A DNA stretch of 64,000 nucleotides from Alphaproteobacteria bacterium (GCA_015062235.1 SUUZ01000006.1:11258-75257); one strand, 5' to 3'; positions 43,688 to 57,255 are shown, counted from the stretch's first letter. Program-made: numbers and translations. The notes: generated by a model from the sequence alone, not told the origin.

Positions 43688-43733
43688 CCGGTGTAGCTCA
43701 TCAGGATAGAGCAACAGTTTCCTAAACTGTGGG
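43688..43733 (+). pseudogene. 5' portion (acceptor stem through anticodon arm) of a disrupted host tRNA-Arg(CCT) gene
   Basis: GCCGGTG-TA-GCTC-ATCAGGATA-GAGC-A-ACAGT-TTCCTAA-ACTGT-GGG then diverges. Complements the 3' fragment at 57206-57255 (acceptor GCCGGTG pairs with CACTGGC). Confidence 0.7.
43714..43733. repeat. 20-bp direct repeat ACAGTTTCCTAAACTGTGGG (island left boundary, attL core)
   Basis: Identical 20-mer at 57206-57225. Corresponds to the anticodon stem-loop of tRNA-Arg(CCT). Confidence 0.7.
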
Positions 43734-43809
43734 CATATTTAGAAAAATAGCACATAACATATTGTAATTAGGTAATTTTTTAACAGATTAAAGATTTTAT
43801 AAAAAATGT

Positions 43810-43835
43810 GGTGCCTCAATGGTGCCTCATTTTTT
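43810..43835. repeat. tandem GGTGCCTCA x2 + T-run motif (candidate integrase arm-type/accessory site, left end)
   Basis: GGTGCCTCAATGGTGCCTCATTTTTT. 24/26 match to the copy at 57059-57084, in the same orientation. Confidence 0.5.
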
Positions 43836-44087
43836 AGAAAAAACACCATTTTTTAGATATTAAATTATGGATGAAAATATTTATTTTTTCTCATACCAAG
43901 CACCCTTGGTAGAACCATTTTTAACCAAGAATCCACCATCAACCAATTCTGCTAATGCTTTTTTGTAAAATAAAAATATTTTAAAATTTTTTCATTTTAT
44001 TTTTGCTTTTTCCTAATCAAGTTTGGTAATATACAAATAAAGCAAATAATACTTATTAAACTTAACTATAATTTTATGGGGGTAATT

Positions 44088-44240
44088 ATGAAAGAAAGCA
44101 AACAATTTTTAGAAGAATGGGTAAAGAATTATTCAACAGATAACCAAACAAAAGAATGGTTAAATGAATGGGTTAAAAAAGCATCAGTTGAATCTCAAAC
44201 TAAACAATGGTTAGAAAGTTGGGTTAATTCTTCTAAATAG
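44088..44240 (+). CDS. small repeat peptide (50 aa; below ORF-track threshold) with iterated EWV/EWL motif
   Basis: MKESKQFLEEWVKNYSTDNQTKEWLNEWVKKASVESQTKQWLESWVNSSK. RBS-like GGGGGTAATT upstream. Followed by a terminator hairpin. Confidence 0.3.
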   Translation: MKESKQFLEEWVKNYSTDNQTKEWLNEWVKKASVESQTKQWLESWVNSSK

Positions 44241-44257
44241 CAAATAGTTTCATCATA

Positions 44258-44292
44258 AAAAAGCACAGAATCTCCCACTTCTGTGCTTTTTT
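44258..44292. terminator. bidirectional rho-independent terminator
   Basis: AAAAAAGCACAGA ... TCTGTGCTTTTTT between the convergent small ORF and the 317-aa gene. Confidence 0.55.
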
Positions 44293-54960: not shown

Positions 54961-55899
54961 GTTTCTGTGTTTTATCTGATGTGTTGCCTCATATTCTTCT
55001 ATATCTTTTAACTTATAAAATACTTTGCTACCTATTTTAATATAGTTAGGACCTTCCCTTCTGACTCTCCATCCCATTAGGGTATTTTCTTTCATATTCC
55101 AGTAATCTGCCAATTCTTTGGTGGTCAGCATATCTTTTTCAATTTTTTGAGAATCTGATTGTTTTACCTTTACATCATTGGTAATAATTTTAATTCCATT
55201 GCTGTCCTTATGTTGTAATTGTAGTTTTTCAATTTCATTAGCATATAGGTCAAATTTTGAGTTTTTTAGTGAATTTTTGAATATTTCCAAGCATTTTATG
55301 AAATCTTGCTTGTGTTTTCCTTTGAAATCAATATTCAACATTTCAAACTTTTCACCAAATATTGTCTTTGTCATCCAGAATAAATTATGGAAAATAGAAT
55401 CCTTAATACAACTGTTCATATTCCAATCTCTTCCATAGAAAGATACTTCATCTTTGAACTCTGTGTTATAGAATTGGAGTCCCTTATCATCATTGTGGTG
55501 TTTTGTTTCTTCTATATCACATCTAAATGTTGCTTCTTTATAAAAGATAACTCTATCAAATACTGTGTTTTTATTAAAAATAGAATCCTTGAAAAAGACA
55601 GAATCCTTAAACTTTATGTCTTTAAATTTTAAATATGTTTTGAATGATGTATTACTAAAATTGACAATATCATTAAAATCACAGTTATTAAATGATAGGG
55701 ATGAGGTGATTTTTAATTCATTTCCTTCAATTTTACCAAACTTACAGTTATCAAACTTTGTATTTTTTGTTTCTAATAATAGAATCTCTACCAATTCACT
55801 ATTATCTGCTTGTGTAAAGTCAATATCCTTAAAATTAGCAATTTTTTGCTGAATAAACTTCTCTTGATTAAAGTGTGTCTCTCTTTTGTATTTTCTCAT
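54952..55899 (-). CDS. Xis/AlpA-like HTH (excisionase-family) protein with N-terminal Phe-rich 5-6-residue tandem repeat domain
   Basis: C-terminal LTTKELADYWNMKENTLMGWRVRREGPNYIKIGSKVFY matches the excisionase/MerR-like HTH. N-terminal region has F at 5/6-residue intervals (beta-solenoid-like). Stop overlaps the tRNA 3' end. Confidence 0.5.
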   Translation of the reverse strand: MRKYKRETHFNQEKFIQQKIANFKDIDFTQADNSELVEILLLETKNTKFDNCKFGKIEGNELKITSSLSFNNCDFNDIVNFSNTSFKTYLKFKDIKFKDSVFFKDSIFNKNTVFDRVIFYKEATFRCDIEETKHHNDDKGLQFYNTEFKDEVSFYGRDWNMNSCIKDSIFHNLFWMTKTIFGEKFEMLNIDFKGKHKQDFIKCLEIFKNSLKNSKFDLYANEIEKLQLQHKDSNGIKIITNDVKVKQSDSQKIEKDMLTTKELADYWNMKENTLMGWRVRREGPNYIKIGSKVFYKLKDIEEYEATHQIKHRNWH

Positions 55900-55903
55900 A
55901 TTA

Positions 55904-57046
55904 CTATCCTATCATCTTCTTAACTGTGTCATTTAGTGTTTCTCTTAGTTGCTCAACATCAAGGTTCACATAAATCTGTGTGCTTTGAATATTAGAATGA
56001 GTTAGTGCTTTTTTCACTTGGAAAGCATTGGCACCATATGAGACCATATATGTTGCCAATGTATGTCTTAAATCATGGAGGTGTAAATTAGTAATTTCTG
56101 CTTGGGTTAATATAGATTTCCAAGTTCCTCTAACCTCTGTGATATGCCCTGTTTTAGATTCAGTTGAGAAGAATACATATTCATTGTATTTTGTTTCTGC
56201 TAATCTTTTTAATATTTTAACAGCACTATCTACCAAGGCAACAGACATATTTTTGCCTGTTTTTGTTTCTGGGATTACCCAAGTTTTACTTTCCAAATCC
56301 ACATCTTGCCATCTCATAGAAAATACATTGCTTCTCCTTGCTCCTGTCATCAATAGCAACCAAATAGCATCTTTGGATATAGAATCTGGATAATTATTGA
56401 TGACCTCAACAAACTTTTCCATTTCTTTTTTGGTTAAATACCTAATTCTTGGGGATTCTTTATTCAACTGAACTGGAACTACTGGGTTTCTGCCATCATA
56501 AAGGTTTCCTTTAATGAAATAATTAAAGATGGTTTTGGAAAATACAATAGAATGATTGGCACACCTTTTACCATTATTAGTGGTGATTTTTTTATGTAAT
56601 TTTTTGAAATCATCAGTGGTTAATTGAGATATTTTCTTGTTTCCAAGAACATTTAAATAGTTTTTCCATAGTCCTTTATAACCATCAATAGTTCTTGGTT
56701 TTAGGTGTTGTTCTTTTTCCTCTATGAATTTTTCATACATAACTTTAAAAGAATCCTCTTGATTTAATTTCTTCTTTTCAGCAATAGGATTCTTGCCTGA
56801 ATTCAACATAATTTTAGTTTTTCTTGCCTCATTTCTTGCTTCATCAACACTCATAAATGATGGTTCACCAAGTTTTACTCTTATCTGATTACCAAGAACT
56901 CTACCTCTTAAATAATAACTTTTATTACCACTTGGAGTTAATAGAAGGGATAAACCTTTCTCTTCTGTGTCATAAACATAGACCCTTTTATTTTGAGGTT
57001 TCAGATTCTTAATATTAGCATTAGTAAACTTGAACTTGTTGCTCAT
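55904..57046 (-). CDS. int: tyrosine recombinase, P4-type integrase
   Basis: N-terminal arm-binding domain (FTNANIKNLKPQNKRVYVYDTEEKGLSLLLTPSGNKSYYLR). C-terminal catalytic HDLRHT...Y motifs. 380 aa. Confidence 0.9.
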   Translation of the reverse strand: MSNKFKFTNANIKNLKPQNKRVYVYDTEEKGLSLLLTPSGNKSYYLRGRVLGNQIRVKLGEPSFMSVDEARNEARKTKIMLNSGKNPIAEKKKLNQEDSFKVMYEKFIEEKEQHLKPRTIDGYKGLWKNYLNVLGNKKISQLTTDDFKKLHKKITTNNGKRCANHSIVFSKTIFNYFIKGNLYDGRNPVVPVQLNKESPRIRYLTKKEMEKFVEVINNYPDSISKDAIWLLLMTGARRSNVFSMRWQDVDLESKTWVIPETKTGKNMSVALVDSAVKILKRLAETKYNEYVFFSTESKTGHITEVRGTWKSILTQAEITNLHLHDLRHTLATYMVSYGANAFQVKKALTHSNIQSTQIYVNLDVEQLRETLNDTVKKMIG

Positions 57047-57058
57047 CTATACCCCCTT

Positions 57059-57084
57059 GGTGCCTCATTGGTGCCTCACTTTTT
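57059..57084. repeat. tandem GGTGCCTCA x2 + T-run motif (right-end copy, 13 bp upstream of int start codon)
   Basis: GGTGCCTCATTGGTGCCTCACTTTTT. Matches 43810-43835. Confidence 0.5.
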
Positions 57085-57205
57085 ATCAATTTTGATAAAT
57101 TTAAATCAATACACAAGAAAAATAAAATGCTTGATTTTTATTGAAATACAGTATATTAAGAAGAATATTGGGTGTCAATGAAAAAGATAAAAAACCTTGC
57201 TTCCA

Positions 57206-57255
57206 CAGTTTCCTAAACTGTGGGTAGGAGGTTCGAGTCCTCTCACTGGCGCCAT
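57206..57255 (+). pseudogene. 3' portion (anticodon arm to CCA) of the disrupted host tRNA-Arg(CCT); includes right 20-bp direct repeat (57206-57225)
   Basis: ACAGT-TTCCTAA-ACTGT-GGGTA-GGAGG-TTCGAGT-CCTCT-CACTGGC-G-CCA. Followed by a strong terminator. Confidence 0.7.

Follow-up and report, generated by a model that had tools for sequence, protein, structure and literature searches.

Islands of the Islander type carry the 3' part of their target tRNA gene in the attachment site of the element (attP), which regenerates the gene on integration and leaves one displaced fragment (PMC4383910). A different arrangement, tRNA-dependent lysogeny, has been shown experimentally in actinobacteriophages by Guerrero-Bustamante and Hatfull in 2024 (PMC10865867). 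In the phages concerned (Fionnbharth/K4, LeBron/L, Gaia/X, Gordonia CQ2 and DL), cores of 8–17 bp do not rebuild the tRNA, and genetic experiments showed that viable lysogens need the cognate phage tRNA. Restoring and non-restoring relatives occur within one integrase family of these phages, and attP is inverted between the related phages Omega and Gaia (PMC10865867). In vTRX32-1-like Rhizobium podophages, a tRNA-Leu gene is interrupted at a 12-bp att motif and a motif-free tRNA-Leu is carried by the phage (PMC8631192); prophage-like sequences of Mesorhizobium and Sinorhizobium have been discussed in the same terms (PMC11476347, PMC12429752). According to PMC10865867, a prophage of Lactobacillus johnsonii, Lj965, was likewise reported to encode a cognate tRNA and not to rebuild the target at the junction. 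Here, we describe an island from an Alphaproteobacteria bacterium, contained in a stretch of 64,000 nucleotides (GCA_015062235.1, SUUZ01000006.1:11258-75257; hereafter the window) in which a host tRNA-Arg(CCT) gene is split. The island comprises positions 43734–57204 plus one copy of a 20-bp core (13,491 bp from core to core). We consider it highly probable (roughly 0.85) that this is a non-phage integrative defence island that inserted into tRNA-Arg(CCT) without restoring it and supplies its own replacement tRNA as part of a conserved module.

The split tRNA-Arg(CCT) gene and its empty site

At the left junction (attL; 43687–43733, + strand), the host tRNA-Arg(CCT) gene is represented by its 5' part, which starts with the acceptor 5' strand, includes the complete anticodon stem-loop and a further GGG, and gives way abruptly to island DNA at the end of a 20-bp repeat. 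The 3' part was found at the right junction (attR; 57205–57254, +), preceded by island DNA and running from the anticodon stem-loop through CCA. Both parts were defined by sequence, ARAGORN, Rfam and identity to an empty site. An initial annotation of this DNA had described such a split gene, and all of its elements were recovered by ARAGORN and Rfam, by a repeat search and by joining the halves. The placement of the two fragments held, with the register corrected by one base, as they had been given as 43688–43733 and 57206–57255. The direct repeat, ACAGTTTCCTAAACTGTGGG, is exact and is present at 43714–43733 (+) and 57205–57224 (+). These were the only two matches in the window, even with up to three mismatches allowed, and the chance expectation was 0 (100 shuffles). 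As had been proposed, the repeat corresponds to the entire anticodon stem-loop, to which it adds three variable-loop bases.

Neither junction contains a tRNA, in agreement with the initial annotation. ARAGORN identified two tRNAs only in the window, a tRNA-Arg(CCT) inside the island (54884–54960) and an unrelated tRNA-Arg(CCG) at 61799–61875, and none at attL, attR or the attP deduced from them. With the Rfam tRNA model, the attL piece scored 22.6 bits, under the gathering score of 29 bits, and attR was without a match. Once joined, the halves were recognized by ARAGORN as a canonical tRNA-Arg(CCT) of the predicted 77 nt with a cloverleaf fold. Islander defines its islands by a regenerated tRNA at one junction (PMC4383910), and here there were fragments at both. 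The features found were instead those of the disrupt-and-replace phages: a tyrosine integrase with a host attachment site (attB) overlapping a tRNA gene and a core too short to rebuild the tRNA, 20 bp in the window and 15 bp in relatives (PMC10865867). Split (trans-spliced) tRNAs of the Nanoarchaeum type have non-overlapping halves, whereas the pieces here overlap by 20 bp and each holds the full anticodon stem-loop; no search aimed at complementary flanks was made. The overlap is the signature of site-specific recombination and not that of a partitioned gene.

The flanking genes had been named as an M20 peptidase and a BI-1 family gene, and we identified the left one as an M20 peptidase and the right one as a Bax1-I/BI-1 protein. 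The empty site sought between them was present in a sister lineage (L147), in which the M20 peptidase is 90% identical and the M20 and BI-1 genes are 158 bp apart. This gap is occupied by an intact tRNA-Arg(CCT) with 100% identity to the window's halves once joined, and no island DNA was found at this M20–BI-1 site. The flanks of L147 and the window are 82–92% identical, with gene order kept on the left (PseudoU synthase, sigma-70, GGDEF, AhpC, VWA, PP2C, Pkinase, SH3, M20) and on the right (BI-1, YgjP, CxxC, DnaB, L28). A further 30 metagenomic contigs carried an intact tRNA-Arg(CCT) with the same core, many of them directly after Pkinase-SH3-M20. The closest of these tRNAs differed from the window gene by a single compensatory pair, one change falling in each half: the window halves share a rare T-A pair at 6-67, which is C-G in the other relatives. 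The empty site and the compensatory match between the halves together show that the fragments were once one gene and that 43734–57204 is an insertion into it. The broken halves showed zero differences from the L147 gene beside visibly diverged intergenic DNA, which suggests that the insertion is relatively recent. In the nearest species representatives by BI-1 (74–76% identity), right-flank synteny was kept, and neither tRNA-Arg(CCT) nor M20 was found beyond BI-1; gene order is not conserved at this divergence, and these genomes speak neither for nor against contiguity of the two fragments.

Two observations concern the surroundings of this site. In the interval that separates the 3' end of the tRNA from the BI-1 stop codon, a GC-rich hairpin (GGGGAG...CTCCCC) followed by a T-run was present in both the window (57258–57295) and L147 (11220–11260), with the stem kept and the loop diverged; it is probably a bidirectional terminator. 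A weak Rfam match to RefA9 (E = 0.12) overlaps it and is probably just that hairpin. The VWA, PP2C phosphatase and Ser/Thr protein kinase trio (window 38500–41954) was also found near M20/tRNA-Arg(CCT) in L017, L018, L023, L139 and L147, and has been rearranged relative to M20 from one species to another.

The integration module and related islands

At the attR end, the island encodes a tyrosine integrase of 380 amino acids (aa) with an N-terminal arm-binding domain (55904–57046, −). Pfam matched Arm-DNA-bind_3 (PF13356, 2.6e-12), Phage_int_SAM_3 (PF14659, 3.1e-07) and Phage_integrase (PF00589, 6.8e-33), which is the three-domain layout of P4-type integrases (arm-binding, SAM-like core-binding and C-terminal catalytic). 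Residues R237, K262, H324, R327, H350 and Y359 were invariant in an alignment of six family members, with catalytic roles assigned by motif position (TGAR, HDLRH, IY) and not by structure, and the enzyme is predicted to be catalytically intact. With its start 159 bp away from the attR core, the gene occupies the island end, as Islander expects of an integrase. Among the integrases in 50,697 phage records, none was more than 26% identical to the protein, and no NCBIfam model reached its cutoff. The adjacent gene (54952–55899, −) encodes a 315-aa Xis-like protein, a candidate recombination directionality factor by Pfam and by a PHROG excisionase/regulator match, with pentapeptide repeats and a C-terminal HTH_17/Tn916-Xis-like domain. 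The initial annotation had recognized both genes, and its Xis-like gene corresponds to this HTH_17 protein, whose stop codon overlaps the island tRNA at its 3' end. The sequence TGAGGCACC occurred four times in the window, as two pairs with an 11-bp period, one within each island end: at 43810–43829 (−), approximately 80–95 bp inside the left end, and at 57059–57078 (−), 13–32 bp upstream of the integrase start codon. Homologous AGGCAC repeats occupy the same spot before the integrase gene in relatives, and the pairs are candidates for the expected arm-type integrase-binding sites.

Relatives were taken as 21 fetched loci (L015–L025 and L137–L146) with an integrase approximately 61% identical to that of the window; integrases at this level of identity were abundant in human and animal gut metagenomes. 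The Xis-like gene stands beside the integrase in these loci as well, and in all 21 the order was integrase, xis and then, on the other strand, an intact tRNA-Arg(CCT). Every one of them also had the 5' half of a host tRNA-Arg(CCT) upstream of the integrase, ending at the anticodon arm and passing straight into island DNA. Five different acceptor stems and no fewer than eight flanking contexts were represented among these 5' halves, which therefore derive from repeated independent insertions. The far junctions of most relatives lay beyond the 10-kb flank, and both junctions were verified in L139 and L141 only. In these two islands (5.6–5.7 kb), island DNA was followed at the far junction by AGT-TTCCTAA-ACTGT and then by the tRNA 3' half. 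The acceptor strands were complementary (GTCCCCG in the 5' half, CGGGGAC in the 3' half), the common core was 15 bp, the joined halves formed a tRNA-Arg(CCT), and the sole intact tRNA in each locus was that of the island. Given the broken 5' halves throughout the set and the two complete pairs of junctions, the lack of restoration and the presence of a cognate tRNA are a property of the family and not an accident of the window copy. The cargo was variable across the relatives and included Type I, III, IIG, MmeI, DpnII and HpaII restriction-modification (RM) systems, AbiE and PIN/SIR2 proteins.

The position of the crossover was visible in L024, where the host 5' stem strand CCGGT and the island 3' strand ACTGT are joined across the loop. 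This hybrid stem places strand exchange within the 7-nt anticodon loop. For the window copy, a crossover in the loop, as first proposed from the window itself, is most likely. In the anticodon-loop sublocation class, reportedly set out by Williams in 2002, the overlap is formed by the loop and the inverted binding sites by the stem. Insertion was seen in either orientation: the integrase lies beside the tRNA 5' half in the 61% clade and beside the 3' half in the window and in L148 (55% clade). All three share a homologous, colinear arm on the integrase side, and the loop sequence is TTCCTAA or TTAGGAA, depending on the orientation. The 17-bp core consists of an inverted-repeat stem and a loop of the form TT-NNN-AA, with asymmetry confined to the anticodon triplet. 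Since the triplet is the sole asymmetry of the core, a 3-nt change in attP would be enough to reverse the orientation of insertion, and this freedom exists because no tRNA 3' half must be supplied.

These features point to a mechanism in which the tyrosine integrase would have recombined the island attP with the host tRNA-Arg(CCT) gene. The attP would comprise a core the size of the anticodon stem-loop only, with arm-type repeats on either side; strand exchange would most likely take place in the 7-nt loop, and the two stem strands would serve as inverted core-type binding sites. Because such an attP is without the tRNA 3' half, integration would leave two dead fragments and no rebuilt gene. 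The complete tRNA-Arg(CCT) of the island, directly downstream of the integrase-xis pair, would compensate for the loss. Integrase, xis and tRNA form a conserved module of gut Alphaproteobacteria islands with swappable RM and defence cargo, and the element is predicted to be still able to excise.

More distant integrases, in clades of 49% identity (L026, L149–L151), adjoin the 3' halves of other tRNAs. The fragment in L026 (9740–9800) has the anticodon loop CTCTTAA and is Lys-CTT-like, and that in L149 (4800–4870) and at the starts of L150 and L151 reads ...CTCATAACCTGAAGGTCGTAGGTTCAAATCCTGCCCCCGCAACCA and is initiator-Met-like. No tRNA gene was found within 10 kb in these four loci. The 49% clades are probably canonical restorers, and it seems that the whole integrase family targets anticodon loops, with replacement only in the Arg(CCT) branch.

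Some loci differed in detail. In L148 (9750–11272), the island tRNA-Arg(CCT) follows the integrase at a distance of 44 bp, with a Vsr/Dcm/HpaII cassette and xis coming after it, and is, from loop to 3' end, nearly identical in sequence to the host fragment on the integrase side (discriminator G vs. A). The contig stops short of the far junction, and a canonical reading of this locus is possible. L023 contained a second Phage_integrase-family gene (20809–21164) that starts approximately 10.8 kb downstream of the first and is preceded by ankyrin, DUF3768 and DUF1737 genes, which may reflect tandem or neighbouring elements at one hotspot. L139 carried a truncated hsdM (12463–13236, 257 aa) followed by unrelated genes, and L137 and L138 carried an hsdM of 569 aa (12463–14172). 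Some family members look like decayed or recombined forms of Type I RM islands that share their site and host species.

The island tRNA and competing explanations

The island-borne tRNA-Arg(CCT) (54884–54960, +) was identified by ARAGORN and Rfam (61 bits) and compared with the host gene arm by arm. The two differ at 15 of 77 positions, spread over both halves, which bears out the earlier statement that the internal gene is not an attL copy. The anticodon loop is the same, the anticodon stem is CAGGT/ACCTG in the island tRNA and ACAGT/ACTGT in the host gene, and the acceptor and T stems are also different. An element-borne cognate tRNA, a feature of the disrupt-and-replace phages (PMC10865867), was thus present in the window, as it was in the 21 relatives and in L148. 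The island tRNA of the relatives equals a chromosomal tRNA (L049) save at six positions, which form the three outer anticodon-stem pairs, and the window tRNA differs from its target at those same six positions and at nine others. This recoding of the anticodon stem tentatively fits avoidance of self-targeting, as proposed for the Rhizobium phages. Strict immunity of the island tRNA to its own integrase through recoding was also considered and was downgraded, given the insertion of L024 into a tRNA with a CCGGT stem and the L148 stem, which is the same as its target.

Codon usage bears on what the island tRNA might do. Of the Arg codons in host genes, 10% are AGG (4.2 per 1000 host codons), and there is therefore a demand for AGG decoding; we infer that the island tRNA is expressed and takes over from the host gene in reading AGG. 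Within the island (eight open reading frames (ORFs) of at least 150 aa, 3,742 codons), the 130 Arg codons comprised 115 AGA, 15 AGG and 0 CGN; in host ORFs, CGN made up 53% and AGR 47% of Arg codons. This is an extreme bias in an island of 27% GC, and cargo translation may be linked to AGR-decoding tRNAs.

The same bias, set against the 47% AGR of host genes, would also be expected if the tRNA were kept mainly for the island's own AGR decoding or as a decoy or substitute for anticodon nucleases, with compensation being incidental. The island is a defence and counter-defence locus, and an anti-defence role of phage tRNAs has been raised (PMC10865867). We regard this as very improbable, as the anticodon matches the broken target in every clade that targets tRNA-Arg(CCT), clades targeting other tRNAs carry no such gene, and AGG accounts for only 15 of the 130 island Arg codons; the roles are not mutually exclusive. 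It is very unlikely that a canonical restoring island later lost its attL tRNA to a deletion that an internal tRNA-Arg(CCT), present as unrelated cargo, happened to mask. Restoration is the norm for tRNA-targeting islands (Islander, PMC4383910), the 49% clade, near a displaced 3' half and without a nearby tRNA gene, fits the canonical design, and a single integration event is seen for the exact island type of the window. A later deletion would, however, have had to end tRNA identity at attL exactly where the 20-bp repeat ends. It would also have had to recur, since the non-restoring junction is present in all 21 relatives across the at least eight independent contexts, with L139 and L141 showing it at each of their ends, and the same-anticodon tRNA is always found in tRNA-Arg-targeting clades and is absent from the others. 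The least credible explanation, a small canonical integrase-xis element 3' of the tRNA at 54884–54960 (with 57205–57254 as its displaced repeat) next to unrelated cargo at 43734–54883, draws on the superficially classical layout of intact tRNA, xis, integrase and 3' tRNA fragment and on the near-identity of intact tRNA and integrase-side fragment in L148, and it conflicts with the L147 site, which lacks the whole 13.5 kb at once and holds a host-type tRNA, with an intact window tRNA that differs from the host in its 5' half too (acceptor 5' strand ACTGGTG vs. GCCGGTG) and is no host-5'/element-3' hybrid, with a fragment at 57205 that equals the one at 43687 over 20 bp and has only 11 contiguous bases in common with the internal tRNA, and with arm-type repeats that bracket the 13.5-kb unit.

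Several observations weigh against a mobile island whose tRNA replaces that of the host. Contigs with an identical M20 gene, where long enough to show the site, were all occupied by the island, and this copy could therefore be fixed or immobile. No exact attP junction or excised form was found in JGI metagenome contigs, a weak negative given that the window's own attR is also missing there. A promoter scan near the island tRNA returned 3 consensus-level matches vs. 1.7 expected and one weak promoter-like match. The anticodon stem of the L148 island tRNA is identical to that of the host target, and recoding is thus not universal. By wobble, tRNA-Arg(UCU) can also read AGG, and a tRNA-Arg(UCU) elsewhere in the host may make the replacement dispensable. 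Separately, Logan contig ends at 43722 and 57234 were considered as attB/attP in the same samples and were rejected; both are as expected of a k=31 assembly graph in the presence of related species whose intact tRNAs share the same 30-mers and differ at acceptor position 6.

The insertion of a defence island with its own replacement tRNA may be one case of a wider pattern. A tentative and rather doubtful extension is that widespread non-phage defence islands in gut Alphaproteobacteria use tRNA replacement as a general anchor, need no more in attP than the near-palindromic anticodon stem-loop, insert in either orientation, carry tRNAs recoded in the three outer anticodon-stem pairs to reduce self-targeting and impose an addiction-like dependence on the host. 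If this were true, dependence on the island tRNA would penalise any loss other than precise excision, and the RM and defence cargo would be stabilised as if by an addiction module.

Island cargo and comparison with known systems

Most of the island genes are on the minus strand. The first from the left is a PD-T4-7-like candidate defence protein of 317 aa (44291–45244, −; PADLOC 1.1e-26, with no Pfam or PHROG match), followed by a single-polypeptide Type ISP/IIG RM enzyme of 1613 aa (45241–50082, −) identified by Pfam (Mrr_cat_2, ResIII, ISP_coupler, Eco57I, Type_ISP_C) and PADLOC (REase_MTase_IIG, 2237 bits). A serine recombinase of the DNA invertase/Mpi family (50298–50900, +; 200 aa) matched Pfam Resolvase and scored 271.8 bits against the NCBIfam Mpi invertase cutoff of 272. 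It is a backbone gene, with 57–73% identity (tblastn) to counterparts in related islands, where it also adjoins RM genes. In the window, the invertase is head-to-head with the RM gene (starts at 50298 and 50082), and the 216-bp spacer (region 50074–50304) contains imperfect inverted repeats, e.g., 50081–50095 and 50234–50248 (15 nt, 87% complementary, 138 bp apart). The spacer could be an invertible promoter that makes restriction phase-variable. The remaining genes encode a Fic/SoFic-like protein of 367 aa (50958–52061, −; Pfam Fic_N and Fic; PADLOC SoFic, 2.1e-107), an ankyrin-repeat protein of 240 aa (52467–53189, −; Pfam Ank_2), a 312-aa ORF without a Pfam, PHROGs or PADLOC match (53227–54165, −) and, upstream of the island tRNA, a 125-aa ORF with a weak DUF6626 match only (54416–54793, +). 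No phage structural, packaging, lysis or replication genes were found in the island with Pfam and PHROGs; the phage-family matches were the integrase, the excisionase-like protein and the invertase only. Disrupt-and-replace elements have been described as temperate phages (PMC10865867), and the cargo here consists of RM and defence genes.

Islands of this design have some practical consequences. Finders like Islander, which look for a regenerated tRNA and one displaced fragment, should miss them, and tRNA annotation will attribute the foreign island tRNA to the host. In this family, giving up restoration leaves a core no larger than the anticodon stem-loop and an orientation that can flip by a 3-nt change. 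A single integrase-xis-tRNA module carries Type I, IIG/ISP, III, MmeI, DpnII and HpaII RM systems, AbiE, PD-T4-7 and SoFic as variable cargo. As a compact integration module, it is also a potential genetic tool for uncultured gut Alphaproteobacteria.

The arm-binding integrase at the island end, the crossover in the anticodon loop and the flanking direct repeat are shared with canonical islands that use P4-like integrases. Unlike these, the window island leaves no gene at either junction and carries a whole separate tRNA (PMC4383910). The Rhizobium phages resemble it in having alphaproteobacterial hosts, and the altered anticodon stems of the island tRNAs parallel the motif-free tRNA-Leu (PMC8631192). 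Those elements are phages, however, with another target tRNA, and the island tRNA keeps 11 core bases including the whole loop. As L024 is a natural integration into a partial site, any immunity of the island tRNA would be partial at best. Lj965, as cited in PMC10865867, differs in being a prophage with a Firmicute host.

The closest parallels are with the actinobacteriophages (PMC10865867), which also combine an arm-binding tyrosine integrase, an attB within a host tRNA gene, an element tRNA with the same anticodon, a short core (15–20 bp here vs. 8–17 bp), no functional tRNA at attL or attR, and integrase relatives that are both restoring and non-restoring. The differences are that the island is without phage genes and carries defence cargo, so that the term lysogeny does not apply; that its host is a gut alphaproteobacterium and its integrase is distant from those of phages; that its core covers the entire anticodon stem-loop; and that its tRNA belongs to a fixed integrase-xis module. 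The need for the tRNA has been shown genetically in the actinobacteriophages (PMC10865867) and is a prediction for the island. The initial annotation had called the arrangement unusual; the pattern of disrupting a tRNA gene and replacing it is borne out, and its rarity is not, as it was already published for phages (PMC10865867, PMC8631192). In the literature searched, we found no report of a non-phage island using it. What is new here is a non-phage defence island with an unrelated integrase, insertion in either orientation and tRNAs recoded in the anticodon stem, which extends a phage strategy to non-viral islands of uncultured gut and rumen Alphaproteobacteria. Given the different lineage and the unrelated integrase, the strategy probably arose repeatedly and may be general among integrative elements.

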